In this document: positions 1-11,850 of the stretch, piece by piece
Position numbering within the stretch: the stretch's first letter is position 1
How the letters are laid out: each line of letters begins with the position of its first letter
Virus record (IMG/VR): IMGVR_UViG_2623620491_000015
Location: 1 to 11,850 of that record
Source of the DNA: a virus
Taxonomy: Duplodnaviria > Heunggongvirae > Uroviricota > Caudoviricetes
Reading direction: 5' to 3' (one strand)
Length of the DNA stretch: 11,850 nucleotides
Position numbers and translations under genes: made by a program
Notes under the pieces: generated by a model
Seen by the model: the letters and a program-made list of their open reading frames with translations, nothing else
Databases searched by the model: none
What the model was told of the DNA's origin: nothing

Positions 1-333
1 AAGCTCTAATAGCTCCGCAAATTCGCCTACACGCATCCTGCTGGTTGACTGGCCTATTACCACAAAGCCATTCCCGGAAAGGTTAGGAACAACGTCCTGC
101 TGCTTTAATGCTGCGGTAAACACACACTTCCAGCTTTCTGCATCCAGCCAGCGACCATGCCATTCAACCTGACGAGAGACGTCACCTAAGCAGGCCCATA
201 GCTTCCTGTTTTGGTCTAAGCTGCGGTTGCGTTGCTTAAACTCGACAATGATGTCTAAATCGCATGTCCTAAGGTACTGAATGGCGTTATATCTTATAGA
301 TTCATTGGTAAGGTGATATTTGACACATTTCAT
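1..333 (-). CDS. ninB: NinB (Orf-family recombination mediator), C-terminus runs off the left window edge; N-terminal ~34 aa differ from the lambda-type NinB
   Basis: Minus-strand ATG at 333-331 with GAGG 8 nt upstream. Own translation gives MKCVKYHLTNESIRYNAIQYLRTCDLDIIVEFKQRNRSLDQNRKLWACLGDVSRQVEWHGRWLDAESWKCVFTAALKQQDVVPNLSGNGFVVIGQSTSRMRVGEFAELLEL, open to position 1. From RNRSLDQ onward it matches NinB as I recall it. Not in the ORF track because it is edge-truncated. Confidence 0.75.
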   Translation of the reverse strand, partial: MKCVKYHLTNESIRYNAIQYLRTCDLDIIVEFKQRNRSLDQNRKLWACLGDVSRQVEWHGRWLDAESWKCVFTAALKQQDVVPNLSGNGFVVIGQSTSRMRVGEFAELLEL

Positions 334-826
334 TTTAATACCTCGCAAATTCGCCGAAACATTCATCCGCTTTATTTGCATATACTTTATGAGCTTCCTT
401 TGGGTCATCGTAAAACCCAAGATTAACTTTCCTCTTGTTGATTACGATTTGCGCCCTCCATTTTCTTGATTTCTTATCCCATGAAACGCCTTTATATCCT
501 GATTTGTTATTTGCCTTTTTGTTTACGTTTTGGATGTTTTGAGATCGAGTTGCCAATCTAAGATTTGCTATACGATTGTCATCCCTAACGAGATTTATGT
601 GGTCGATATCACTTTTTGGTAGACTGCCATTCATATAGAGCCACGCCAGCCTGTGTGCCTTATAAAGTTTTCCATCGACTTTTATTACCCAGTAGCCTTC
701 GCTACTCTTATGCCCTGCGATATCCCCAGCATTCATTCTCTGGCATTTCTTTACTTTCCATGTGAATTTCCCTGTTAACTCATCGTAGAGAAGGACTTCT
801 TTTAGTCTCTGCTGAGTTATTTGATT
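232..826 (-). mobile_element. Homing-endonuclease cassette inserted in the 5' part of ninB (HNH-AP2 coding segment plus a replacement ninB 5' end)
   Basis: NinB-like sequence sits on both sides: residues 1-32 at 922..827 and from residue ~35 at 231 downward. The intervening segment is visibly AT-rich compared with flanking DNA and encodes the endonuclease domains plus a new ninB start with its own SD. Boundaries are approximate. Confidence 0.5.
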
Positions 827-922
827 GATTGGTTTGGTTGGGTCTGGAAGGATTTGCTGTACTGCGTGAATAGCGTTCTGCTGATGTGCTGGAGATCGAA
901 TTTCAAAGGTTAGTTTTTTCAT
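335..922 (-). CDS. HNH (HNH_3) + AP2-domain homing endonuclease, fused in frame to the first 32 residues of lambda-type NinB
   Basis: Track ORF 335..940 starts at TTG; the ATG at 922 (MKKLTFEI...) has a purine-rich SD (GGGAGAGGGAAG) just upstream. Motif DIDHINLVRDDNRIANLRLATRSQN is HNH_3-like; SGYKGVSWDKKSRKWRAQIVINKRKVNLGFYDDPKEAHKVYANKA is AP2-like. The first 32 aa read like the NinB N-terminus. Confidence 0.8.
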   Translation of the reverse strand: MKKLTFEIRSPAHQQNAIHAVQQILPDPTKPINQITQQRLKEVLLYDELTGKFTWKVKKCQRMNAGDIAGHKSSEGYWVIKVDGKLYKAHRLAWLYMNGSLPKSDIDHINLVRDDNRIANLRLATRSQNIQNVNKKANNKSGYKGVSWDKKSRKWRAQIVINKRKVNLGFYDDPKEAHKVYANKADECFGEFARY

Positions 923-936
923 GACTTCCCTCTCCC

Positions 937-970
937 CCAAATAAAAAGGCCTGCGATTACCAGCAGGCCT
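937..970 (-). terminator. tR2-like intrinsic terminator between helicase and ninB region
   Basis: Perfect 8-bp inverted repeat aggcctgc / gcaggcct (947-954, 963-970) with an 8-nt loop. On the minus strand it is followed by TTTTATTTGG. Confidence 0.6.
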
Positions 971-995
971 GTTATTAGCTCAGTGATGTAGATGG

Positions 996-2372
996 TCATA
1001 CGTCAGCCCCTTGTGCATATCGTCTGCCACGCGCAGCAGGTGCATTTGATGCTGTGCAAATCTGTCTGGCTTCATCCTGGTCACATGCAACAAAGTGTCC
1101 GTTACAGAACCGCTGGTAAACCGTACCAAGCGAGCCAAAACGGTTTTTCGTCACGATGATTTCAGCAAATGGCGCGGCGCTACTGTTCTCGTCATATACC
1201 GCTTCCCGATAGAGCATGATGATTGAGTCTGCGTCCTGTTCAATGCTTCCTGAATCACGCAAATCTGCGTTTGTCGGGCGTTTGTTTGGTCGCTTCTCAA
1301 CATCGCGCGAAAGCTGACTTAGGGAGATAACAGGCGTTTTCAGGTCTTTCGCCATCGCCTTCAGGCTTCCGGAGATGTGAGCAATTGCTAGGTCGTTGCG
1401 GTCTGCTTTCGGCTTCTCAATCAGGCCAAGATAATCCGCCATGATTAGAGACAGGTTTGGATTTTCCTGTTTATGCCGTTCTGCGATTGAGCGTATTTCT
1501 TCGACCGATAACCGCGAGGCATCGACTACCCATACATCCAAATCTGCAAGCTGACTCATGCCGTTAGCAACACGCGCCCAGCCTTCGTCATCCATCGATG
1601 CAGGATTTCGCAGTACGCTAACCGACATCCTCCCGGCGTTGGCAATGCTTCGCTCTGCAATCTGCAATGCGCTCATTTCCATTGAGAAAATCAATACCCC
1701 GCGCCGGACGTCAGAACCAGGAATAACGCGGCTTGCAACGCCTTCGGCAATCTTCAGCGCCAGTTCGGTTTTCCCCATACCAGGACGAGCAGCGATTATC
1801 ACCAGGTCTTCTGCGTTCATCCCTCCGGTGATGGCATCAAGTTCTTCGATTCCGGTCTTCAGGGTATCGGACTCTTCTCCGTTCCTCAGACGCCTGTCAA
1901 GCGTGTCAGTGTAGTCAGTGATGATTTCCCCTAACCGTACAGGTTTAACCTCGTCACGGGGCTTTCTGATAGCTGAGAGACGTTTTACAAGTTCATCCAT
2001 CGCCTGACTCGATGCGTCGATGGTTCCGCTCTGAATTGGTTCACGCATTTCATCCATGATTTCCAGCACCAGACGGCGGTGATAGTTATCCGCGACCATT
2101 CCGGCATATCCCTTCAGGTTTGCGGCACTCGGGCAGTTTTTGCTGGTCATCAGGATTGACGTGAAATGCTCCTCTCCGCATTCCTCAGCAACCATCAGCG
2201 CGTCGATTAGGTTTCTGTTTCGCGCCTGCTTGCGGATAACCTCGAAGGCTTTCCGGTAGAGCGGAATTGAAAACGCTTCCGGCTCCAGCGTTGCCAGAAC
2301 GTCACTGGCGGTTGGAGTTAATCCACCAATCAGCAAGCCACCGATAACGCTCGCTTCGATATCCTGTCTCAT
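996..2372 (-). CDS. Replicative DNA helicase, DnaB family (P22 gp12-like)
   Basis: 458-aa ORF with Walker A ([15 protein letters not shown]) and DnaB-type RecA-fold motifs ([29 protein letters not shown]). ATG at 2372 overlaps the upstream gene's stop (ATGA). Confidence 0.9.
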
Positions 2373-3316
2373 GCAATCCCCCTGTCTGCAAACTTCCCTT
2401 CCCGTACTCCCGTTAACGAATCTTCCCTCAGCAGGTAATCAAAATCTGCCGTCCAGCCCGTGTCGTTGTCTCCGAAGTAAAACGGCTTGGCCTGATGCAC
2501 AAACGCCCTGACATACGCTCTGAAACCGTCCACGTTTGGCGTTTTCAGTTGCGGAATGATTTTCTTCAGGCGACGTTTGCGTTTCTCGTTGACCGCAACA
2601 GCGTGTGGCAGTCTGTCACCGACTTCGGTGTTGTAGGCATTCAGGAAGGATTCATAGTCGATTCGTTCTGCCTTGCGACGTTCAGGTTTAACCTGCCCAT
2701 CGCCTCCCCCATTGGGGGGTAGGGGGGTATTATTTATATTCTTGTTAATACCTTCTTGTTCATGATGTGCGGTTGTTTGTGCGGCTTCATGTGCGCTTTC
2801 ATGTGCGGCATGTACGCTGAAAGCCGCGCCATTACTGGCTTCGTCATGTGCGGCGTCATGTGCGGTTGTTTGTGCGGCTTCATGTGCGGGTGAATTGTCC
2901 ATTTTTTGAGCATATTCATGGTAATTTGTGATGGTGATCACACGACCTTTTTGCTTCTCTCCATCAATGGTGATCATCCCCTCTTTCACAAAAACCTGAA
3001 GCATCCGCTCAACCTGATCACGGCTTGCCGGCTTGCCATGCCTGTCGCATAACTGAAGACCTAAATCAGCTGCTGTCACAACCAGTTGACCGGGTTGCAG
3101 ATGCCATTCATGACCTTTGAAATTCGCTTTGTATGGCTTTCTGGCGGCATTCAGGAGAAGGTTTTCCCACAGGGTGCGAAGATAAACATCTTTCGCCCAT
3201 GACTGTTTCAGAATGCTCCGGTACAACGGAATGTAACCAGTTTTCTGGTTCTCCATCCTGTTGCTCCTGCGCTCGTGTGCGGCGCTGAAATCGTAGATTT
3301 TTGCTGTGTTGCTCAT
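2369..3316 (-). CDS. Replication initiator protein (lambda O / P22 gp18-like) with a repetitive Ala/His-rich linker
   Basis: 315-aa ORF. The N-terminus [10 protein letters not shown] resembles lambda O (MTNTAKILNF). It sits immediately upstream of, and translationally coupled to, the helicase gene. The internal repeat region coincides with the iteron-like DNA repeats. Confidence 0.8.
2766..2894. repeat. Eight copies of a 12-bp direct repeat TGTGCGGnnnnn in two clusters of four; candidate ori iterons
   Basis: Units at 2766, 2778, 2790, 2802 and 2847, 2859, 2871, 2883 (tgtgcggttgtt, tgtgcggcttca, tgtgcgctttca, ...). A G-rich then AT-rich stretch follows at 2710-2760 (ggggggtaggggggtattatttatattcttgttaata). 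This is the same arrangement as ori-lambda inside O. Confidence 0.55.
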
Positions 3317-3318
3317 AA

Positions 3319-3591
3319 CTACCTGCCTTGACGAAAGACCTTAAGAACATCGTTAAACTGACTTACGGATATGTCTTCTTTGAGCAGCTTTTCCAGAAAT
3401 GCGTTTGGAATGAACGTATATCCATCCTCTTTTGGTAGAGACGGGAGCAACGCCCTCGCCTCAGCCTTCAGAAGCTCAGTTCTGGCAACTTTCACAAAAG
3501 AGATTTGAGTTCTTTCATCAATGGAACGAAGGAAGCGCAAACGCTTAGCTTCTTTGTGTGTATCAGGTGGATTAAAGCCTTTGTTTCGCAT
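3319..3591 (-). CDS. Hypothetical protein (90 aa) between cII and the O-like gene
   Basis: Internal ATG of track ORF 3319..3756 at 3591 with GAGG SD. The upstream part of the track ORF overlaps cII in another frame and is discarded. The stop abuts the O-like start. Confidence 0.55.
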   Translation of the reverse strand: MRNKGFNPPDTHKEAKRLRFLRSIDERTQISFVKVARTELLKAEARALLPSLPKEDGYTFIPNAFLEKLLKEDISVSQFNDVLKVFRQGR

Positions 3592-3602
3592 ATAATTACC
3601 TC

Positions 3603-3669
3603 GTTGGATGTTGTTAAAATTCCATTTGTATTTGATCAGAACGCTCGGTTGCCGCCGGGCGTTTTTTAT
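3603..3669 (+). ncRNA. oop: oop-like antisense RNA overlapping the 3' end of cII
   Basis: Plus-strand TATAAT at 3591-3596. The 3' end CAGAACGCTCGGTTGCCGCCGGGCGTTTTTTATT matches the lambda oop terminator as I recall it. It is antisense to the last ~55 nt of cII. The 5' end is an estimate. Confidence 0.6.
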
Positions 3670-3910
3670 TGGTGAGTCCATCAAGCGCATACTTAAAAGC
3701 CCTGCTAATCGGACTGATATCTGATGCCATTCCGAAAGCACACAAGACCGAGGCAATAAATCTCCAGTCCGTTCTGCTTATCTTCGATTCATGACAGCCA
3801 ATCATCTTTGCCAGACCGCGCTGGGTAAGTGTTGACAGGTTGATGAGTAAATCGGTTTCTGCGCGATCAACATCGCGCTGTGATAGTTTGCTGTAACTTG
3901 TTTGTTCCAT
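3614..3910 (-). CDS. cII: Transcriptional activator CII
   Basis: 98 aa. The C-terminus LTNKKRPAATERSDQIQMEF and the central ...ESKISR... match lambda CII. Position between cro and the replication genes fits. Confidence 0.9.
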   Translation of the reverse strand: MEQTSYSKLSQRDVDRAETDLLINLSTLTQRGLAKMIGCHESKISRTDWRFIASVLCAFGMASDISPISRAFKYALDGLTNKKRPAATERSDQIQMEF

Positions 3911-3925
3911 TTCTTACTATTTCCA
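3888..3925 (+). promoter_or_regulatory. PRE-like promoter with CII-box repeats (TTGC-N6-TTGT) overlapping the cII start
   Basis: ttgc tgtaac ttgt at 3888-3901, immediately beside the cII ATG (complement of 3908-3910). Same geometry as lambda PRE, oriented toward cro and cI. Confidence 0.5.
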
Positions 3926-3974
3926 TAGGTAAATAATCACTAATACTCATCTTTCGATGAGCGATTAATTAGTT

Positions 3975-4010
3975 ACCGCGTTGTCGGCGGTGCAGATTGA
4001 TAAAGAGCGG
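3975..4010 (-). promoter_or_regulatory. nutR (boxA + P22-type boxB)
   Basis: Minus strand reads CCGCTCTTTA (boxA, 4001-4010), then ACCGCCGACAACGCGGT (boxB hairpin, 3975-3991), between cro and cII. Confidence 0.7.
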
Positions 4011-4019
4011 ATCCGCTTA

Positions 4020-4235
4020 TTAAGCGGCTTTGTGTTCCGGCGGGAACACGTCATCAAGACTGACTTTTGCGCCTAACTTGTTTAGGCACGCAACAAGAGC
4101 ACGGCATGTTTTAAGGTCTGGGAAGCGACGACCAGATTCCCAATGTCCGATAGCTCCCTGTGTGCATCCAACCGCCTTAGCAAGTGTTGTTTGAGAGATA
4201 TTCAGTGACTCTCGATATTTTCGTAGGTTGCTCAT
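4020..4235 (-). CDS. cro: Cro-like HTH repressor (71 aa)
   Basis: Internal ATG at 4235 with GGAGGG SD directly upstream. HTH region SQTTLAKAVGCTQGAIGHWESGRR. Divergent from cI across the operator region. The 5' extension of the track ORF is discarded. Confidence 0.8.
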   Translation of the reverse strand: MSNLRKYRESLNISQTTLAKAVGCTQGAIGHWESGRRFPDLKTCRALVACLNKLGAKVSLDDVFPPEHKAA

Positions 4236-4346
4236 ATGCCCTCCATAGTAACCATGAAACAATAATACGATATGTACTTTTGGAATGCAAACAAAAAATA
4301 CATCTTGTGCATGGATGGTTTTAGTACATAGCGTAATAATAAGGAT
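4236..4346. promoter_or_regulatory. OR region: divergent PR/PRM with repeated ~17-bp operator motif
   Basis: Operator-like sites at 4262-4280 and 4321-4339 are inverted copies (AGTACATAnCGTAnTA) and are partly palindromic. PR candidate on the minus strand: -35 TTGCAT (complement of 4285-4290), 17 bp, -10 TATTAT (complement of 4262-4267). cI may be nearly leaderless. Confidence 0.6.
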
Positions 4347-5006
4347 ATGAAAATGAAATGGTATGAACTGGCTAGATCCAGAATGAAAGAGCTCGGCATA
4401 ACTCAAGAGAAGTTAGCTGAAGAGCTTGGTATGACGCAGGGTGGAATTGGTCACTGGTTGCGCGGATCTCGTCATCCATCTCTTGACGAGATTGGTGTGG
4501 TGTTTAAATACCTTGGTATTGATAACGTCTCATTCAACCACGACGGTACATTTTCACCTGCTGGCGAATACTCATCTGCCCCCGTTAAAAAACAATATGA
4601 GTACCCTGTTTTTTCTCATGTTCAGGCCGGGATGTTCTCGCCTGAGCTTAGAACCTTTACCAAAGGTGATGCGGAGAGATGGGTCAGCACAACCAAAAAA
4701 GCCAGTGATTGTGCGTTTTGGCTTGAAGTTGAAGGTAATTCCATGACCGCACCAACAGGATCCAAGCCAAGCTTTCCTGACGGAATGTTAATTCTCGTTG
4801 ACCCTGAGCAGGCTGTTGAGCCAGGAGATTTCTGCATAGCCAGACTTGGCGGTGACGAGTTTACCTTCAAGAAACTGATCAGGGATAGCGGTCAGGTGTT
4901 CCTACAACCACTAAACCCGCAATATCCAATGATCCCATGCAATGATAGCTGTTCCGTAGTAGGGAAAGTTATCGCCAGCCAGTGGCCTGAAGAGACATTT
5001 AGTTAA
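4347..5006 (+). CDS. cI: CI repressor (LexA-like S24 autocleavage domain); lambda-type C-terminal domain with a non-lambda N-terminal HTH domain
   Basis: The C-terminal ~125 aa ([22 protein letters not shown]...[11 protein letters not shown]) are near-identical to lambda CI as I recall it. N-terminal HTH is [25 protein letters not shown]. Alternative start ATG at 4353 with AAGGA SD. Confidence 0.9.
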
Positions 5007-5038
5007 CAGCCTCACCACTCTAAAACACACAACAATAA

Positions 5039-5066
5039 CCCGACCTTAGCGTCGGGTTTTCTTTTT
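5039..5066 (+). terminator. Intrinsic terminator downstream of cI
   Basis: cccgac-cttagc-gtcggg hairpin followed by TTTTCTTTTT. Confidence 0.7.
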
Positions 5067-5085
5067 CCAAAATATAAATCAATAA

Positions 5086-5160
5086 AATACAAAGTGTTAT
5101 AAAAAACCAACCACATTTAGAACATTTTGTATTGACTCAATAAAGTACACATCGTACTAT
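5086..5160 (+). promoter_or_regulatory. OL/PL: leftward early promoter with operator sites
   Basis: -35 TTGACT (5132-5137), 17 bp, -10 TACTAT (5155-5160). Site AGTACACATCGTACTAT (5144-5160) matches the OR motif. Inverted pair aatacaaagtgtt (5086-5098) / aacattttgtatt (5121-5133) lies upstream. Confidence 0.6.
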
Positions 5161-5206
5161 TTAGCCATCAGCAGGAAGCTGGAAGCCAAACGGAACAGAT
5201 TGGCAG

Positions 5207-5240
5207 GCTCTTTAACTTCGATGGGGCGCTGACAAAGCGC
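5207..5240 (+). promoter_or_regulatory. nutL (boxA GCTCTTTAAC + P22-type boxB GCGCTGACAAAGCGC)
   Basis: boxA-like at 5207-5216 and a perfect 5-bp stem / 5-nt loop hairpin at 5226-5240, in the PL leader upstream of N. Confidence 0.75.
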
Positions 5241-5359
5241 AAACAGATACCAAACGAGATGGGTTTGGCGGTGATGTGAATTGCAGCTGCAACGACAGCA
5301 ACCAGAAGATCAGCACCTGGCGCATCACCACCAAAGCCATTTCACATGAGGAAAATATC

Positions 5360-5668
5360 ATGACGGTAATCGTGTACGGAAAATCAACATTTGCAGGAAA
5401 TGCCAAAACTCGCCGTCATGAGCGGCGCAGAAAGCTGGCTATCGAGCGTGATGCTATATGCAACATCATCGATTCGATCTTCGGCACAGACAGTGAGGAA
5501 CCTGTTCAGGAAGCCCCGAGAAAGCGTTTAAGCATTTCTGAAAAAGCAATATCACTCGGCATCATTAGCAAATCAAATACAGATGCGAATAGCGGAAGCG
5601 TTTGTTTGCCTGAAGTTGCACTGTATGCTGCTGGTTACAGAAGGCAAAAACTAATTACAGCGAGGTAA
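5360..5668 (+). CDS. N: Antitermination protein N (P22 gp24-type arginine-rich motif)
   Basis: ATG at 5360 with GAGGA SD. N-terminus MTVIVYGKSTFAGNAKTRRHERRRKLAIER matches the boxB-binding peptide of P22 N. The upstream part of the track ORF is discarded. Confidence 0.85.
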   Translation: MTVIVYGKSTFAGNAKTRRHERRRKLAIERDAICNIIDSIFGTDSEEPVQEAPRKRLSISEKAISLGIISKSNTDANSGSVCLPEVALYAAGYRRQKLITAR

Positions 5669-5670
5669 AA

Positions 5671-5949
5671 ATGAAGCCTAGCATAACAATCAAGCCAGCG
5701 AGAGATAATAGCAGGAACCGCCGCAGAGAGGCCAGGAAGGCAGAAAGAGCAGAGAAGGAAAACAAGAGCCGGGAGGAGAGAAAGGCAGAGATTTTGGAAA
5801 AAGGAGGATTGGCTGCCGTGAGGGGTGAAAAAGCAGCTGAATTAGCAGTAGCTCACGAAAAGACAGAGATTGACAATAATTCTGGTGGAGATGCAATGTT
5901 TAAAGTTGTCAATCACGCCCATCAACGAAACCCCAAAAAGAAATGGTAA
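5671..5949 (+). CDS. Hypothetical highly charged (Arg/Lys/Glu-rich) 92-aa protein
   Basis: ATG 3 nt after the N stop with GAGG SD. The DNA is strongly purine-rich on the coding strand. Ends just before a terminator. Confidence 0.55.
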   Translation: MKPSITIKPARDNSRNRRREARKAERAEKENKSREERKAEILEKGGLAAVRGEKAAELAVAHEKTEIDNNSGGDAMFKVVNHAHQRNPKKKW

Positions 5950-5952
5950 TCA

Positions 5953-5977
5953 ACCCGTCCAAGACGGGTTTTTTATT
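5953..5977 (+). terminator. Intrinsic terminator (tL1-like)
   Basis: cccgtc-caa-gacggg hairpin followed by TTTTTTATT. Confidence 0.7.
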
Positions 5978-6006
5978 GCAAGCAAACCACTTATTTGAGA
6001 TGAGAT

Positions 6007-6372
6007 ATGGAAGAACAAGCAAACAAGATTCTCGTAGAACTACTGCAAAAAGCCAGCAATGGAATAGACGCGGCTGTTTCATTTAGCCAGGCACAGATTC
6101 CTGATGTCATCCATCAGCTTTTGATGTGGCACGCCGTATCATCAGCTGGAATTCAGGCTATCTGTGTATTGGTGATTATAGCGTGTGTTTATCTGATGAT
6201 TTTTGCATGGAATAAAGGAGATGATGCGGATGTTGTTCTTTTATCGCTACTTGTAACATCAGGAATAGCGATTACTTCTATTGTTGTTTTCTTCAATTAT
6301 TTCGACTGGCTGAAAATCTGGCTTGCTCCAAAACTTTACCTTATCGAATATGCAGCATCATTGGTTAAGTAA
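6007..6372 (+). CDS. Hypothetical small membrane protein (two predicted TM helices)
   Basis: 121 aa. Hydrophobic segments IQAICVLVIIACVYLMIFAW and VVLLSLLVTSGIAITSIVVFF. Sits where lambdoid phages carry sieB/ral-type accessory genes. Weak SD. Confidence 0.55.
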   Translation: MEEQANKILVELLQKASNGIDAAVSFSQAQIPDVIHQLLMWHAVSSAGIQAICVLVIIACVYLMIFAWNKGDDADVVLLSLLVTSGIAITSIVVFFNYFDWLKIWLAPKLYLIEYAASLVK

Positions 6373-6376
6373 TTTC

Positions 6377-6402
6377 AGGCCGCATAGTCGGCCTTCATTT
6401 TT
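6377..6402 (+). terminator. Intrinsic terminator
   Basis: aggccg-catagt-cggcct hairpin followed by TCATTTTT. Confidence 0.6.
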
Positions 6403-6404
6403 GG

Positions 6405-6547
6405 CATAAACAACAGAATAAACACTGCACTGTGTATTCATTCCAACGAGTGAATACACGGAGCAATGTCGCTCGTAACTAAACAGGAGCCGACTTGTTC
6501 TGATTATTGGAAATCTTCTTTGCCCTCCAGTGTGAGGGCATTTTTTT
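6405..6547 (+). ncRNA. Candidate structured non-coding RNA or leader bounded by two terminators
   Basis: No ORF. 9-bp perfect inverted repeat gtgtattca / tgaatacac (6432-6440, 6451-6459), additional pairing acgag / ctcgt, and a terminal intrinsic terminator gccctc-cagtgt-gagggc + TTTTTTT (6522-6547). Confidence 0.35.
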
Positions 6548-6559
6548 GACGGAGGAAAT

Positions 6560-6871
6560 ATGAAATTACGTGTCTGGCATATCCCGCAAGTACCTATGAA
6601 GCCGTTCATTGTAGAAGTGGCAAGTGTTGAAGAGGGTGTTCGCCTGATGGACGCACTGGCTGATTATGACGCCTTTCAGTATGACAACAACATCAAGCCT
6701 GATTACTGCAATGCTAACGGCCTTGAGATGTGGGATGAGAGCCTTACCGATGAAGATTTATCAGAGATGGGGCTTACTGATCGCTGGGTGGATTGGTACA
6801 GCGAATGCCAATGTTACGACGACCCACGTAAATATCTCGAAAGCCTGAAAGAAGAAACATCAGCCGCCTAA
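6560..6871 (+). CDS. Hypothetical acidic 103-aa protein
   Basis: ATG with GGAGG SD. Strongly acidic composition (many D/E, Trp-rich). Sits in the ea10/ral-equivalent position. Confidence 0.65.
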   Translation: MKLRVWHIPQVPMKPFIVEVASVEEGVRLMDALADYDAFQYDNNIKPDYCNANGLEMWDESLTDEDLSEMGLTDRWVDWYSECQCYDDPRKYLESLKEETSAA

Positions 6872-6946
6872 GCGCGGCTTTACCGCATACCAATAACGCT
6901 TCACTCGAGGCGTTTTCGTTATGCAATCAAATATAAGGAGTTACCC

Positions 6947-7081
6947 ATGATGCACTTTCAGCTCGCGGGTAGCGGCGTCATGTCCGCTTTCTACCCGCAC
7001 GAATCTGAATTATCACGCCGAGTTAAACAATTAATCAGAGCAGCAAAGAAACAACTGGAGGCGTTATGCGCAATGAAATAG
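6947..7081 (+). CDS. cIII: CIII-like FtsH-inhibitor peptide (44 aa)
   Basis: Not in the track (<60 aa). AAGGAG SD 7 nt upstream. MMHFQLAGSGVMSAFYPHESELSRRVKQLIRAAKKQLEAL resembles the lambda CIII core (AIAGWPVAGCPSESLLERITRKLRDGWKRL). Confidence 0.7.
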   Translation: MMHFQLAGSGVMSAFYPHESELSRRVKQLIRAAKKQLEALCAMK

Positions 7082-7218
7082 CCATTAATCACCAGATGCT
7101 TCGTGCGGCACAAAACAAAGCAGTAATAGCCAGATTTATTGGTGATTCAAAAATGTGGCTTGAAGCAAATAAAGCGATGAAATCAGCTATCAACCTTCCG
7201 TGGTATCGCAGGAAATGA
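7066..7218 (+). CDS. kil: Kil-like peptide (50 aa), putative host cell-division inhibitor
   Basis: Not in the track. GGAGG SD; the start overlaps the cIII-like 3' end. Motif ARFIGDSKMW resembles lambda Kil as I recall it. Synteny cIII then kil. Confidence 0.5.
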   Translation: MRNEIAINHQMLRAAQNKAVIARFIGDSKMWLEANKAMKSAINLPWYRRK

Positions 7219-7293
7219 GTTTTACAGATAACTGGTCAGACGAAGAATTCATTCGTCAGATGAAAGAATTAATCGGTAACGAAGGAGATATTC

Positions 7294-7464
7294 ATGTCAC
7301 TTGCAACCACAGTGAAGGAGAGCAAGTTACAGAGACGCATGTACACGCAGCAGGCGTTAATGTATCGCCAGAAGGGAGATCGTGAAGGTGTTCGCGTATT
7401 TTTAAATGCGGCAAAGACTGAAGTATTAAATCAGCGTTATTTCCTTGGGCCGTGTCCATTCTGA
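7294..7464 (+). CDS. Hypothetical 56-aa protein (Arf-like position upstream of the annealing protein)
   Basis: AAGGAG SD 6 nt upstream of the ATG. Plausible helical sequence MSLATTVKESKLQRRMYTQQALMYRQKGDREGVRVFLNAAKTEVLNQRYFLGPCPF. A competing ORF 7215..7385 in another frame is coupled to kil by ATGA. Confidence 0.5.
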   Translation: MSLATTVKESKLQRRMYTQQALMYRQKGDREGVRVFLNAAKTEVLNQRYFLGPCPF

Positions 7465-7472
7465 GGTGAATT

Positions 7473-8180
7473 ATGGATTTGAATAAATTCGATGAGCCAT
7501 TCAGCCCTGAAGATATCGAATGGCGAATACAGCAAAGCGGTAAAACACGCGATGGCAAAGTGTGGGCTATGGTGCTGGCTTATGTAACGAACCGGGCAAT
7601 CATGAAACGCCTGGACGATGTTTGCGGCAAAGCAGGATGGCGCAATGAATACCGCGATATTCCCAACAACGGCGGCGTTGAATGCGGCATATCAATAAAG
7701 ATTGATTCCGAATGGGTAACCAAATGGGATGCTGCTGAAAACACGCAGGTAGAAGCCGTCAAAGGTGGTCGTTCCGGTGCAATGAAGCGCGCTGCCGTTC
7801 AGTGGGGAATCGGTCGGTATCTGTATAACCTTGAGGAAGGTTTCGCACAAACATCTCTCGATAAAAAGCAGGGATGGCACAGGGCAAAACTCAAGGATGG
7901 AACAGGATTTTACTGGCTCCCTCCATCGCTGCCGGGATGGGCAATACCAGCATCAGATAACAAACCATCACCAGAAAATACCAACCAGAAATCTCCATCG
8001 GTTGACTGCGAACAAATCCTGAAAGACTTCAGCGATTATGCGTCAACAGAAACTGACAAGAAAAAACTCATCGAGCGTTATCAGCGTGACTGGCAATTAA
8101 TGGCTGGCAATGAGGAGGCGCAGGCTAAATGCGTTCAGGTAATGAACATCAGAGTTAACGAACTAAAACAGGCGGCATAA
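7473..8180 (+). CDS. Single-strand annealing protein, Rad52/Sak family
   Basis: 235 aa with Rad52-like motifs (RLDDVCGKAGW ... GAMKRAAVQWGIGRYLY). Directly precedes ssb. Confidence 0.7.
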   Translation: MDLNKFDEPFSPEDIEWRIQQSGKTRDGKVWAMVLAYVTNRAIMKRLDDVCGKAGWRNEYRDIPNNGGVECGISIKIDSEWVTKWDAAENTQVEAVKGGRSGAMKRAAVQWGIGRYLYNLEEGFAQTSLDKKQGWHRAKLKDGTGFYWLPPSLPGWAIPASDNKPSPENTNQKSPSVDCEQILKDFSDYASTETDKKKLIERYQRDWQLMAGNEEAQAKCVQVMNIRVNELKQAA

Positions 8181-8687
8181 ATGGCAAGCAGAGGCGTAAA
8201 TAAGGTGATTATCCTTGGTCGGGTAGGACAAGACCCGGAAGTTCGATACTCACCATCAGGTACAGCGTTCGCTAACCTGACAATAGCCACGTCAGAACAA
8301 TGGCGAGATAAAAATACTGGCGAGCAAAAGGAATTGACTGAATGGCATCGTGTTGCTGTATCCGGGAAACTGGCTGAGGTCGTGGGGCAGTATGTGAAAA
8401 AAGGTGATCAGATTTATTTCGAGGGAATGCTGAGAACCAGAAAGTGGAAAGACCAGTCAGGGCAAGACCGTTACACAACCGAGGTTCATGTCGGAATTAA
8501 TGGCGTGATGCAAATGCTTGGCGGCATTGGCGACAGCAAACAACAAGCAGCCAGCAGGCAATCACAGAAGCCACAGCAGCAATCATCACCAGCACAACAC
8601 AACGAACCTCCGATGGATTTTGACGACGATATACCCTTTGCACCAGTAACTCTCCCCTTCCCTCGTCACGCTATTCACGCAATTTAA
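8181..8687 (+). CDS. ssb: Single-stranded DNA-binding protein with a 15-aa extension after the DDDIPF motif
   Basis: OB-fold N-terminus ([23 protein letters not shown]...), Q/S-rich linker, then MDFDDDIPF followed by [15 protein letters not shown] before the stop. Confidence 0.85.
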
Positions 8688-8700
8688 TCAGGAGAAAATC

Positions 8701-8997
8701 ATGCCAGCGCCTCAGTATGGTGCGGATGACCCGCGCCGCTGTTCCGGCAATTCCGTATCGGAGGTGCTGGATAAATTCAGGAAAAACTACGACCGGATAA
8801 TGTCGCTACCGCAGGAAACGAAAGAGGAAAAGGAATTTCGCCATTGTATATGGCTTGCAGAGAAAGAAGAACGCGAGCGAATTTACCAGACATCAATCCG
8901 ACCATTCCGCAAAGCCACATATACCCACTTCCCTGAATATATCGACCCTCGCCTGCGTAATTACCGCTCACGCTATGGCGCTATCAGTAATGACTGA
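8701..8997 (+). CDS. Hypothetical protein (98 aa)
   Basis: ATG with AGGAG SD. Confidence 0.6.
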
Positions 8998-9007
8998 GGA
9001 ATTTACT

Positions 9008-9172
9008 ATGAGAGGACTTGCATACAATCCCGGCATTCTTCCGGCAGAAATGATTATTCGCCAACGCGTAAAGCCAATGCCATCGAGAGAGGAATTGCTT
9101 AAGAGAAATTCTTTTCAATCAGTAAATCAAAACAAATATCTGAATGCGATGTTGCGGAGTGGGAAGAAATGA
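9008..9172 (+). CDS. Hypothetical protein (54 aa)
   Basis: ATG at 9008 with GAGGA SD. The upstream part of track ORF 8855..9172 overlaps the previous gene and is discarded. Confidence 0.5.
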
Positions 9173-9645
9173 AACAAATGTCACTAATTGAGATGGATGG
9201 ATTCCTGAAAGGTAAATGCATCCCCCGAGATTTAAAGGTTAACGAAACAAACGCTGAATATCTGGTGCGTAAGTTCGGTGAACTTGAATCAAAACTAGAA
9301 ACGGCGTTGCGGGAGTGTCGTTCTGCTGGAATCACGATTGATAACCTTGAGGCCAAGTGCGCGGCGCTGGCTGCTGAAAAAGAGACATTTGCTGTCGAGT
9401 GTGCGGCCGCAAAAATCGCCATTGCATACCTGAAATCAGGACGACAGGATTTTTCGCTTAACACCCCAGCCACTGACGCTTTCCTGGCTGAAGTCCGGGC
9501 TAAGGCGTTTGATGACCTTTGCGCGGCGTTCGTTAAGCACGCGTCGGTGTCCGGGCTGGACGATGGCGACTGCGTTACGGTGAAAGAGGCGACTGACGCC
9601 CTGCTGCATTGTGCGGAACAGCTTCACGAGGGAGTGCATTCATGA
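9169..9645 (+). CDS. Hypothetical protein (158 aa)
   Basis: ATGA overlap with the upstream gene. Predicted helical, Ala-rich. Confidence 0.6.
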
Positions 9646-9875
9646 GCAACCTACTACCATGTCCATTCTGTGGCGGCGCAGCGCACGTTGCCAGCGAAGC
9701 AGATCACCCTGAATATGGCTCTGGCGGTCGATTCTATTTCGTTCGATGCGGTACGTGTCGCGCTCAATCTGGTAGCAAATATGCAGCGCCTGGAAATGAC
9801 TGCGCGATTTTTTATTCAGAGGTTAGAGCAGAGTGGAATCAGCGAGCAAAGGAGGCAACCAGTGAGCCAGATTGA
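9642..9875 (+). CDS. lar: Lar-family restriction alleviation protein (zinc-ribbon)
   Basis: ATGA overlap with the upstream stop. [12 protein letters not shown] ... RCGTCR ... EWNQRA matches the Lar/RalR pattern (CPFCG ... C..C ... WN.R). Confidence 0.65.
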   Translation: MSNLLPCPFCGGAAHVASEADHPEYGSGGRFYFVRCGTCRAQSGSKYAAPGNDCAIFYSEVRAEWNQRAKEATSEPD

Positions 9876-10413
9876 TTATCAGGCACTGCGTGCTAAGGCA
9901 GAAAAAGCAACGTGTGGTGTGTGGTCGCTCGAATATGGAGAGAGCCGATTTGATTGTGATGATGCGCTAATTCATCGTGACGTTGTTGGATATCTTCCCA
10001 TTTGCAGAATTGAAGGAGCGCATCCAGAAAGCGGTTTCGATGAAGATTTCCAAATGGAACAGCAGGCCAATGCTGAATTCATCGCCGCAGCCAATCCGGC
10101 TACTGTGCTGGCATTACTGGATGAACGGGAAAGGAACCAGCAATACATCAAATCCCGCGACCAGGAGAACGAGGAGATTGCGTTAACGGTAGGGAAGTTG
10201 CGCGTTGAGCTTGAGGCAGAAAAACAGCGGGCAAAGGATCTGTTTATGGAAAATGCTCGGCTTAAGTCAGGTATAGCCGGTCTGATACACCTCGGTATTC
10301 GATATGCAGATGTTGAGGTCATGAGAATTGCTGGAGATGCCCAGCTTTCTACCCCATGCACTGACAGCATCATAAACAGCATTGCAACAGGCATTCGCAT
10401 CAAAGGAGAGTGA
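9862..10413 (+). CDS. Ead/Ea22-like protein
   Basis: GTG start with AAGGAGG SD 7 nt upstream. N-terminus SQIDYQALRAKAEKATCGVW is typical of the Ea22-like family. The part of the track ORF upstream of 9862 overlaps lar in another frame and is discarded. Confidence 0.65.
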   Translation: MSQIDYQALRAKAEKATCGVWSLEYGESRFDCDDALIHRDVVGYLPICRIEGAHPESGFDEDFQMEQQANAEFIAAANPATVLALLDERERNQQYIKSRDQENEEIALTVGKLRVELEAEKQRAKDLFMENARLKSGIAGLIHLGIRYADVEVMRIAGDAQLSTPCTDSIINSIATGIRIKGE

Positions 10414-10615
10414 TATGAGCAGGAATATGGGTTTGTAAAAGATAACGCTTGTGAAAATGCTGAATTTCGCGTCGTCTTCACAGCGATGCCAGAGTCTGTA
10501 GTGTCAGATGATGACCGTACTCAAACATCGGGTTGAGTATTATCTTACTGTTTCTTTACATAAACATTGCTGATACCGTTTAGCTGAAACGACATACATT
10601 TCAAGGAGTTTATAA

Positions 10616-10897
10616 ATGCGTATCAATGAGTTAGAGTCTGAGCAAAAAGATTGGGCGTTATCAATGTTGTGCAGATCCGGTGTCTTGTCTCCATGCAGAC
10701 ATCACGAAGGTGTTTATGTAGATGAAGGTATAGATATAGAGTCGGCATACAAATATTCAATGAAGGTTTATAAGTCTAATGAAGACAAATCCCCATTCTG
10801 CAATGTGCGAGAAATGACTGATACCGTGCAAAATTATTATCACGAGTACGGTGGAAACGATACTTGCCCTCTCTGTGCAAAACATATAGATGATTAA
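10616..10897 (+). CDS. Hypothetical Cys-rich 93-aa protein in an AT-rich island (moron-like)
   Basis: AAGGAG SD. Visibly AT-rich compared with flanking DNA. Cysteines include a C-terminal CPLC pair. Followed by an intrinsic terminator. Confidence 0.6.
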   Translation: MRINELESEQKDWALSMLCRSGVLSPCRHHEGVYVDEGIDIESAYKYSMKVYKSNEDKSPFCNVREMTDTVQNYYHEYGGNDTCPLCAKHIDD

Positions 10898-10917
10898 ACC
10901 AAATATTACATAACAAT

Positions 10918-10944
10918 CCTCGCACTCGCGGGGATTTCTTTTAT
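10918..10944 (+). terminator. Intrinsic terminator
   Basis: cctcgc-actc-gcgggg hairpin followed by ATTTCTTTTAT. Confidence 0.6.
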
Positions 10945-10985
10945 CTGAACTCGCTACGGCGGGTTTTGTTTTATGGAGATGATAA

Positions 10986-11153
10986 ATGCACTTCCGAGTC
11001 ACAGGTGAATGGAATGGAGAGCCATTCAACAGGGTTATCGAAGCAGAGAACATCAACGACTGCTATGACCACTGGATGCTATGGGCGCAGATAGCACATG
11101 CAGACGTAACCAATATTCGAATTGAAGAACTGAAAGAACACCAAGCCGCCTGA
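10986..11153 (+). CDS. Hypothetical protein (55 aa)
   Basis: Not in the track. ATG with GGAG upstream. The stop lies inside the terminator hairpin. Confidence 0.45.
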   Translation: MHFRVTGEWNGEPFNRVIEAENINDCYDHWMLWAQIAHADVTNIRIEELKEHQAA

Positions 11154-11168
11154 TGGCGGTTTTTTATT
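11146..11168 (+). terminator. Intrinsic terminator
   Basis: ccgcc-tgat-ggcgg hairpin followed by TTTTTTATT. Confidence 0.6.
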
Positions 11169-11179
11169 GGAGACAAGAA

Positions 11180-11524
11180 ATGTCAGATTTGGCTATGAAG
11201 GTTTTGAAATGGCAATCAACTGGCGATGTTGGCATCAGTAGCGCAACTCTTGCCTCAATCGCATGTGGCCTGAAAAAGAATATCTATGGTCATCACTTCG
11301 GCGCTCCCCATGACGCAGCAGACTTTCGGCGATGCGTTGCACTTGTTGAGCAGATTCCAGAAATCAGAGATTCATTCGACAAGGTTGCAAAGCGCGTTCC
11401 GGTATTCAAAGGCATCCTCAACGAATGGGATTCCCTCGTCGCTCTGTTGAAGTCTGAAATGAAGACGTACGGGAACAAAGCACCAGAGACTTACAGAAGA
11501 ATCAGCGAGCTACGCAAGGACTAA
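11180..11524 (+). CDS. Hypothetical protein (114 aa)
   Basis: ATG at 11180 with GGAGA SD. The 9-codon upstream extension in the track overlaps the terminator and is discarded. Confidence 0.6.
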   Translation: MSDLAMKVLKWQSTGDVGISSATLASIACGLKKNIYGHHFGAPHDAADFRRCVALVEQIPEIRDSFDKVAKRVPVFKGILNEWDSLVALLKSEMKTYGNKAPETYRRISELRKD

Positions 11525-11584
11525 CCACAGCCTCACACTCGATGAGGCCTGTTCATTGCTCAATGATATCCAGACCTACCATCG

Positions 11585-11607
11585 CCGCATCAATGCGGTT
11601 TTTTATT
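11585..11607 (+). terminator. Intrinsic terminator
   Basis: ccgcat-ca-atgcgg dyad followed by TTTTTTATT. Confidence 0.55.
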
Positions 11608-11649
11608 GCCTGATTTACAGGTTCGATTCCCTATTCGGAGATAGCACTC

Positions 11650-11850
11650 ATGCAACACGAACTACAGCCTGATTCACTGGTTGATTTGAAATTCATCATG
11701 GCCGATACTGGCTTCGGTAAGACCTTCATCTATGACCGGATTAAGTCCGGCGACCTGCCTAAAGCCAAAGTTATCCACGGGCGAGCAAGATGGTTATATC
11801 GTGACCATTGTGAATTCAAAAATAAGCTCTTAAGCCGCGCCAATGGGTAA
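11650..11850 (+). CDS. xis: Excisionase / AlpA-family DNA-binding protein
   Basis: 66 aa. FIYDRIKSGDLPKAKVIHGRARW is an AlpA/Xis-type winged-helix motif. The stop codon is the last three bases of the window; an integrase is expected just beyond. Confidence 0.7.
   Translation: MQHELQPDSLVDLKFIMADTGFGKTFIYDRIKSGDLPKAKVIHGRARWLYRDHCEFKNKLLSRANG

Follow-up and report, generated by a model that had tools for sequence, protein, structure and literature searches.

A gene in a Caudoviricetes virus genome encodes a protein that binds single-stranded DNA (an SSB) in which the C-terminal docking tip of bacterial SSBs is followed by a conserved peptide. The stretch analysed, hereafter the window, comprises 11,850 nucleotides (positions 1 to 11,850 of IMG/VR record IMGVR_UViG_2623620491_000015), and its ssb gene (8181-8687, + strand; 168 codons and a stop) specifies a bacterial-type SSB (Pfam PF00436, E 1.6e-36, residues 6-104) with a lengthened C-terminus: the tip DDDIPF is followed by 15 residues. 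This extension is maintained by purifying selection, is carried by several unrelated SSB scaffolds in hundreds of phages and comes in classes that follow the clade of the host. The tip and the extension may together form a bipartite short linear motif with a weakened general docking activity and with one or a few partners, probably of the host; we propose this reading tentatively and rate it at slightly less than an even chance.

Four segments were delimited in the protein, all encoded on the + strand. The OB-fold DNA-binding and oligomerisation domain (residues 1-114, 8181-8522) was defined from an AlphaFold2 model and from alignment to the E. coli SSB core. It is followed by a Gln/Pro-rich disordered linker (residues 115-141, 8523-8603) with a predicted local distance difference test (pLDDT) score of about 30-47 and with gaps in the alignment to the E. 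coli SSB structure 1EQQ. Next comes the SSB C-terminal (SSB-Ct) tip of 12 residues (142-153, 8604-8639), which according to the same alignment is identical to that of E. coli and is internal, and last the extension itself (residues 154-168, 8640-8684), recognised from the translation and its conservation and referred to below as the class-1 capped tip. The TTT codon of Phe153 occupies 8637-8639 and the TAA stop 8685-8687; the junction F153/A154-P155 (8637-8645) is a recurrent insertion point of homing endonucleases in related phages. Against solved structures, the protein matched 7F2N (E 2e-59) and 1EQQ (E 6.6e-58), and the alignment with 1EQQ (178 residues) stops where residue 153 of the query meets residue 178 of the chain, both of which are Phe, so that the last 15 residues lie beyond the end of a canonical SSB. 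An SSB with 15 residues after DDDIPF, as an earlier note made from the letters of this DNA had described, is therefore what both the translation and the structural alignment give, and the canonical feature of a tip Phe in last position is absent.

In the AlphaFold2 model, built from an alignment of 109 sequences, pLDDT was 71-85 in 10-residue blocks over residues 11-100, with the expected OB strands and one helix. Residues 114-168 had a pLDDT of about 30 and made no contact with the OB fold. The extension is thus predicted to be disordered and undocked, as expected of a linear motif that binds a partner. Intramolecular docking of the tail onto the OB fold was considered and rejected, the tail being disordered in the modelled monomer. 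A programmed frameshift leading to a canonical end was rejected as well, as a DIPF end is obtained in neither shifted frame: translation in +1 gives F-H-Q-stop, and in -1 no stop is close by. The partner pockets for SSB-Ct peptides have three parts in common: the terminal Phe enters a hydrophobic pocket, its alpha-carboxyl group contacts a basic lip and the Asp residues lie on a basic ridge. Binding is abolished when the terminal Phe is lost (PMC10164576). The earlier note had also stated that DDDIPF is normally a terminal docking site, and this point stands: the extension internalises the very Phe whose alpha-carboxyl group belongs to one of the three features shared by these pockets (PMC10164576).

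The extended gene is not peculiar to this record. At the nucleotide level, ssb was 99.6-99.8% identical, tail included, to the ssb genes of phages mEp235, HK75 and mEpX2; in Salmonella phages epsilon34 and g341c the gene was 89% identical and the amino acids of the tail were the same. Among complete E. coli genomes, 412 of 5426 contained a match and 273 of 5426 contained most of the gene (about 5-8%), and every listed row covering the gene was annotated 'ssb'. We also surveyed the 120 best-scoring SSB clusters at 90% identity, some of which comprise as many as about 1000 proteins; they derive from E. coli, Klebsiella, Salmonella, Citrobacter and Enterobacter. The extension was found at the end of 112 of the 120, whereas 7 stopped at DIPF; this comparison of related genes for a stop after TTT had been recommended in the earlier note. 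A sequencing error that had removed a stop after DIPF, which the same note had considered, is excluded by the nearly identical phage genes, and the recurrence of the same tail in sequenced phages, in 412 E. coli genomes and in 112 of 120 clusters rules out chance or error. Capped SSBs are thus far more widespread than the single gene suggested.

The cluster survey and the matches obtained with phmmer and tblastn were unforced, no tail pattern having been imposed. Searches by tblastn with the last 40 residues and by exhaustive phmmer with the last 33 residues recovered the same type of ending on very different proteins. The phmmer search against 1.84 billion representative sequences gave 14 matches at E<=0.001, on diverse carriers; their small number follows from the short query and from clustering at 50% identity, which merges capped and uncapped SSBs. 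A word-indexed protein search with the 40-residue tail returned 14 fragments only. Among the carriers, a protein of Cronobacter phage JK004 has an extension-type ending over its final 21 residues, gp17 of Klebsiella phage BIS47 (406 residues) ends APIGLPYGRNFIHCI, ORF214 of E. coli phage rV5 ends APVGLQYGKSRIHAL and an OB-fold protein of Vibrio phage 1.149.O ends APVGLQFGKKFMHVI. Plasmid records from Salmonella, E. coli, Enterobacter, Vibrio and Pantoea, about 20-95 kb in size among those listed, also contain ssb genes with tail-like endings; plasmid matches extending to the last residues of the tail were few. The sizes of these records suggest that they may be phage-plasmids. Many records of conjugative plasmids appear to match the tip only.

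To characterise the motif, loci were retrieved from IMG/VR by scanning for DNA that encodes DDIPFAP, and the counts that follow are counts among the matches listed. The consensus of the extension is AP[IV][GT]L[PQ][FY]x[RK]xx[ILM][HY]x[ILM]-COOH. Its length was 15 residues in 54 of the 61 loci starting AP-x-[GTSC]-[LK]; Leu at position +5 was invariant and was encoded by 5 different codons, and Ile was present at position +12 in 34 of 37 distinct sequences. In the unforced tblastn, phmmer and cluster matches, Phe was followed by [AS]-P almost without exception. The 12-residue tip was kept in all carriers. Selection was estimated on codons +6 to +15, which are constrained by neither the search pattern nor the locus filter. 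The proportions of synonymous and nonsynonymous differences (pS and pN) were 0.715 and 0.313, giving a Jukes-Cantor-corrected ratio of nonsynonymous to synonymous substitutions (dN/dS) of about 0.18 with synonymous sites saturated. The ratio pN/pS was 0.44 in the SSB frame, compared to 1.19 and 1.25 in the two other frames, which were often closed by stops. As the ratio is low in the SSB frame only, selection bears on the peptide and not on a nucleic-acid element or an overlapping gene: the extension is under purifying selection at the protein level.

The same conservation bears on the proposal that the tail is a C-terminal degron or a removable pro-peptide, which would either limit the level of SSB or, upon trimming, expose a DIPF-COOH end. 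The C-termini always consist of a small residue and then an aliphatic one (AI, VI, AL, SL, CI) after Arg, Lys or His, and the end recalls RRKKAI, the ClpX-recognised C-terminus of MuA, in which a basic cluster directly precedes the final A-I; other C-terminal signals of this kind belong to the ssrA class, ending LAA. The tail of the window, however, does not fit a ClpX-type C-motif: it ends RHAIHAI, with its basic residues 6-7 positions from the end, and has no LAA. Furthermore, conservation of the N-terminal half AP.GL.[FY] equals that of the end, a processive protease would not be expected to halt at Phe153 and no cleavage motif is known there. We regard a degron or pro-peptide as improbable.

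The tip and tail are found on proteins that are otherwise unrelated. DDIPF+AP endings of any class occurred in at least six SSB-type PHROG families. Class-1 tails were carried by phrog_44, which includes classical SSBs and the Vibrio OB-fold type, by phrog_743, by phrog_4477, the two-OB protein of Vequintavirinae, and by a 155-residue protein without PHROG assignment; other AP extensions were found on phrog_9002, on the gp2.5-like phrog_112 and on phrog_378. The tail is thus a portable module across unrelated SSB scaffolds. These observations have to be set against another explanation, in which the extension has no new partner and purely masks the tip, hiding it from host nucleases and helicases (ExoI, RecJ, RecQ) and avoiding the titration of essential partners. 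The requirement for the alpha-carboxylate is general (PMC10164576), which suits masking, and so does the position of ssb, flanked by an annealing-protein gene and an anti-RecBCD gene, where protection of single-stranded DNA (ssDNA) ends would fit; a preprint on the DRT10 defence system moreover ties a related phage SSB-like protein to ExoI biology (bioRxiv 10.64898/2026.04.29.721553). Any extension would serve as a mask, yet conservation of both length and sequence is tight, unrelated scaffolds have kept the motif and a tip identical to that of the host is left unexplained. Pure masking is therefore unlikely in our estimation.

Scans of bacterial genomes, which forced Ala-Pro after Phe, showed that extensions fall into classes. 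As the scan of genome contigs gave many chance DDIPFAP matches in unrelated open reading frames (ORFs), only C-termini of SSB-like ORFs were kept. Class-1 tails were present in Providencia, Proteus, Sodalis, Xenorhabdus, Trabulsiella, Tatumella, Escherichia and Rheinheimera. A class of 9 residues (APLHHLAGA, APMHHLAGV or APHHHLNGA) was found in eight Pseudomonas genomes (loci L128, L131, L178, L179, L196, L215, L217 and L235), and a class of 4-6 residues (APEWR, APEWRG or APETRG) in the Rhizobiales, namely Rhizobium, Devosia and Pseudohoeflea (loci L139, L165, L187 and L198). The class of the extension thus follows the host clade, not the SSB scaffold or the neighbouring phage genes. Variant endings were seen in Paenalcaligenes (APLLARCEYVI) and Pseudomonas floridensis (APISRLLLNII), and PRHAIHAI of class 1 loosely resembles PLHHLAGA of the Pseudomonas class.

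One host protein that could be considered as a universal partner is the beta sliding clamp. Clamp-binding peptides have the consensus QLxLxL/F or QL[SD]LF, an example being QLSLPL in Hda, and the segment P[VI][TG]L[PQ][FY] of the extension is like such a hexapeptide, so that it could bring the clamps of the host to phage ssDNA. The most conserved positions are Leu and the aromatic residue, the two that would occupy the clamp pocket, and P-V-T-L-P-F agrees with the consensus at positions 2, 4 and 6. Position 1, on the other hand, is an invariant Pro and not Gln, eight more conserved residues are left without explanation, and the Pseudomonas (APLHHLAGA) and Rhizobiales (APEWR) extensions are unlike clamp motifs. 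Since clamp-binding motifs are similar across bacteria whereas the extensions are clade-specific, the clamp is disfavoured as a universal partner, and we give this possibility little weight.

The earlier note had suggested that the tail could redirect the SSB to a phage-encoded partner, and the products of the adjacent genes, the annealing protein Sak and the anti-RecBCD protein Abc2, are the obvious candidates. There is a precedent in phage HK620, whose SSB needs its last six residues to stimulate the cognate Sak4 and is thus functionally coupled to it through its C-terminus (Hutinet et al. 2018, PMC5928155). In addition, the DNA of the tail and the start of abc2 form an essentially identical block in the window and in phages Huey and Sf6. 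This block of about 75 nucleotides (8642-8715) comprises tail codons 155-168, the stop, the ribosome-binding site AGGAG and the first codons of abc2; between the window and Sf6 the identity is 100%, and Huey has one mismatch, whereas the upstream sequences and the bodies of the ssb genes diverge. Judged from these alignments, it looks like a mosaic joint common to lambdoid phages. Examination of neighbouring genes gave a different picture. A Rad52/Sak gene (encoding a 235-residue protein) was directly upstream in 9 of 28 groups of tail-bearing SSBs; on inspection, other upstream genes looked Sak4-like, RecT-like, RdgC-like or YqaJ-exonuclease-like, and many had no identification. Tail-bearing SSBs therefore stand beside at least three or four types of annealing protein, or beside none: no annealing-protein gene was seen next to the tail-bearing gene in large lytic phages, including 140-kb myoviruses. 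P22 has abc2 without such a tail, and rV5-like and Mydovirus phages carry the tail and have no evident module in common with lambdoid phages. Clustering of the ORFs around 59 class-1 loci showed only ordinary temperate-phage gene families co-occurring, so no phage partner emerged. As the upstream genes are diverse and the class follows the host, a dedicated phage partner is disfavoured and a host partner varying by clade is favoured; redirection to a phage protein such as Sak is quite improbable. The idea that the tail represents the 3' end of P22 abc1, or is otherwise tied to abc2, was also rejected: P22 Abc1 ends SRLSRLRKK and the abc1-abc2 spacer differs.

The junction between tip and tail is a site of endonuclease traffic. 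In Sf6 (gp26; locus L004, 2081-3043) and Huey (locus L247, 1201-2145), two divergent HNH genes have inserted at exactly the point where the Phe codon meets the tail; the SSB ends at the DIPF stop and the HNH ORF continues in frame into the tail, which is thereby fused to its C-terminus. According to the Sf6 record, gp26 has 14 contiguous residues in common with an 'E. coli SSB', and we infer that these are the tail. In the endonuclease, the sequence PDEE aligns with FDDD of the tip, 12 nucleotides (IPFA) being missing, and this alignment suggests a duplicated and altered target site. Other arrangements were found in IMG/VR: at locus L255, an Sf6-like HNH gene at the junction reads the tail DNA out of frame, and at loci L283 and L253 the insert is an unrelated ORF, of about 190 residues, whose stop directly precedes an untranslated remnant, IGLPYPRH[AT]IYVI; by its position, this ORF probably encodes a nuclease. 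In rV5 (loci L250 and L334), the HNH gene ORF213 starts inside the tail codons of ORF214, whereas the Bas52 protein Bas52_0087 (locus L333, 3982-5208) ends SFDDDIPF, without tail and without HNH gene. The 3' end of the rV5 HNH ORF (YEYF-stop) aligns with the original 3' end of the SSB gene. A third state of the locus was observed in ES18 (locus L006, 2501-3892): the SSB ends NFDDEIPF and is followed by a T7 gene 7.7-like HNH gene and then by a 105-residue abc2, and neither of the two ORFs translated showed a tail. Because endonuclease insertion restores the DIPF stop, a canonical-tipped SSB is viable in the same phage background.

Could the tail then be a neutral footprint of this traffic at the 3' end of ssb, a read-through or cassette remnant spread by co-conversion? 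Three different nuclease cassettes sit exactly at DIPF/AP, the start codon of the rV5 HNH gene lies inside the tail codons, tail and HNH gene are jointly absent in Bas52, and co-conversion would explain how one segment of tip and tail came to be on unrelated scaffolds. Against this, 118 of the 137 tail-bearing loci listed had no nuclease nearby, while 16 of 137 had the Sf6 arrangement and 2 of 137 that of rV5; no nuclease ORF adjoins ssb in the window. A scar would moreover decay, and the extension has a fixed length and a dN/dS well below 1 in the SSB frame only. Homing may thus explain the spread of the tail and cannot account for its maintenance. As a complete explanation, an endonuclease scar is excluded, and a neutral footprint seems to us extremely improbable; homing with co-conversion is a plausible vehicle for moving tip and tail between unrelated ssb genes.

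We therefore return to the bipartite motif. In this reading, the OB fold would coat the ssDNA made in phage recombination and replication. Because Phe153 is capped, the carboxylate contact would be lost: the alpha-carboxylate bound by the basic lip of partner pockets is absent, and docking to the host SSB interactome (ExoI, RecQ, RecG, PriA, chi and others) would be weakened or altered. New hydrophobic anchors could be provided by Leu158, which is invariant, by the aromatic residue 160, by Ile165 and by the new aliphatic C-terminus, which follows basic or His residues and has a free carboxylate of its own, so that tip and extension would act as one bipartite peptide selecting one or a few partners. 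The candidate partner would most likely be a host protein, since the class of the extension follows the host clade and depends on neither scaffold nor neighbouring genes. As a result, ssDNA coated by the phage SSB would have a client list unlike that of ssDNA coated by the host SSB, and this altered list may act alongside annealing by Sak and RecBCD modified by Abc2. That the tail blocks or redirects partner binding we infer from its conservation.

Four observations weigh against this interpretation. The strict conservation of the 12-residue tip argues that the tip is still used, which is awkward for a simple block. Sf6, Huey, IME10 and N7, in which an endonuclease splits tip and tail, have a canonical-tipped SSB and are viable, and so the cap is not essential. 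Of rV5 and Bas52, two phages of the same genus, only rV5 has the extension. Finally, the IMG/VR loci were retrieved with patterns that forced DDIPFAP or part of the tail, and for this reason prevalence estimated from these scans is not unbiased.

A broader proposal is that capped tips are a general phage strategy. A DDDIPF tip mimicking the host would be combined with a clade-specific extension, which is of class 1 in phages of Enterobacterales and Vibrio, of the APLHHLAGA type in Pseudomonas and of the APEWR type in Rhizobiales. The universal hub peptide of SSB would thereby become a highly specific adaptor or inhibitor of one host genome-maintenance protein, for example an ssDNA exonuclease such as ExoI, and the module would be spread among unrelated phage SSB genes by endonuclease co-conversion at DIPF/AP. 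We consider this possible and distinctly doubtful.

In the window, ssb is the middle gene of a recombination module of three contiguous genes, all on the + strand. It is preceded by sak (7473-8180), encoding a Rad52-family single-strand annealing protein of 235 residues (Pfam PF04098 Rad52_Rad22, E 5e-26, residues 4-136; the C-terminal part of about 100 residues has no assignment), and followed by abc2 (8701-8997), encoding an anti-RecBCD protein of 98 residues (Pfam PF11043 Anti-RecBCD_p2, E 3.5e-61). The statement in the earlier note that Sak and SSB stand in place of gam, bet and exo agrees with the Pfam assignments to the Rad52 family and to SSB; gam, bet and exo are absent from the module, and Abc2 supplies the anti-RecBCD function. 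The module lies downstream of a CI-type repressor gene (4347-5006) and of a homologue of P22 gp17 (6560-6871), and homologues of Ead/Ea22 and ea8.5 are found downstream of it. On the - strand are genes for an O-like replication protein (2369-3316), a DnaB-like helicase (996-2372) and, adjoining the latter, a 201-residue endonuclease with HNH_3 and AP2 domains (335-940). The surroundings are those of a lambdoid early region, with the module in the early-left operon. The HNH_3 and AP2 protein probably represents a homing endonuclease of the free-standing type within the replication module; an ORF resembling it was seen directly upstream of a tail-bearing ssb at locus L033. Just 5' of sak (7200-7464) are two small overlapping ORFs of 61 and 56 codons, and the 56-residue product, the one submitted to Pfam, had no match. 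Short genes at a similar position in Sf6 and Huey carry the annotation 'recombinase' (HK97 gp42-like).

The gene order Rad52-like/SSB/Abc2 is identical in Sf6, CP-1639 and Huey. Modules of SSB-1, an annealing protein and an anti-RecBCD protein have already been catalogued for lambdoid phages (Genome Res 2025, PMC12315714), and the Sf6, ES18 and epsilon34 types described there are like the module of the window in having a Rad52-like annealing protein, a bacterial-type SSB and Abc2 in this order. The searched passages of that catalogue do not mention the extension. The combination of sak, ssb and abc2 is therefore not new, and the new part is the extension after DIPF. The Sf6 module differs from that of the window by the HNH gene between tip and tail, and the ES18 module by its canonical tip, its unrelated HNH gene and the lack of a tail.

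Other SSBs share some of these features. E. coli SSB has the PF00436 OB fold, a disordered linker and the same 12 tip residues; in contrast, the SSB of the window has an internal tip with 15 conserved residues after it, has a shorter linker and is phage-borne in a recombination module. Phage P1 SSB is likewise a phage-encoded bacterial-type SSB with the 12-residue tip, and is a phage SSB reported to be able to replace E. coli ssb. It stops canonically at the Phe of DDDIPF, and was for this reason rejected as an experimental precedent for the extended form. The HK620 SSB (HkaK, 'SSB-2'), associated with Sak4, resembles that of the window in standing beside an annealing protein and in requiring C-terminal residues for coupling, but belongs to an unrelated SSB family and has its functional motif, NDYPPF, at the extreme C-terminus with no extension. 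Bas52_0087, an SSB-like protein of Vequintavirinae, is the trigger of DRT10, and its FDDDIPF motif has been noted (bioRxiv 10.64898/2026.04.29.721553). Bas52_0087 and rV5 ORF214 resemble the SSB of the window in having a disordered C-terminal region with a FDDDIPF-type tip, and differ from it by their scaffold (phrog_4477). Bas52_0087 is uncapped and ends at DIPF, whereas its rV5 and Mydovirus orthologues are capped; rV5 ORF214 and the orthologue in Klebsiella phage BIS47 have the class-1 extension. In the searchable literature we found no description of the extension and no paper containing the junction or tail strings.

In bacterial genome maintenance, the C-terminal tip of SSB is the peptide at the centre of partner recruitment, and the free carboxylate of its last Phe is treated as a defining contact. 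Many SSBs of phages and prophages, including those of HK75, mEp235, epsilon34 and rV5, keep the host tip under a selected, clade-specific cap. Natural pairs of capped and uncapped proteins exist, as in the window phage versus Huey and in rV5 versus Bas52. The finding bears on genome annotation, capped genes being currently labelled just 'ssb', on recombineering, where the annealing protein must suit the SSB tail, and on the defence systems that phage SSBs trigger (DRT10, Retron-Eco8, Hna and AbpAB). It points to an unrecognised route by which phages may rewire, evade or hijack the SSB interactome of their hosts.

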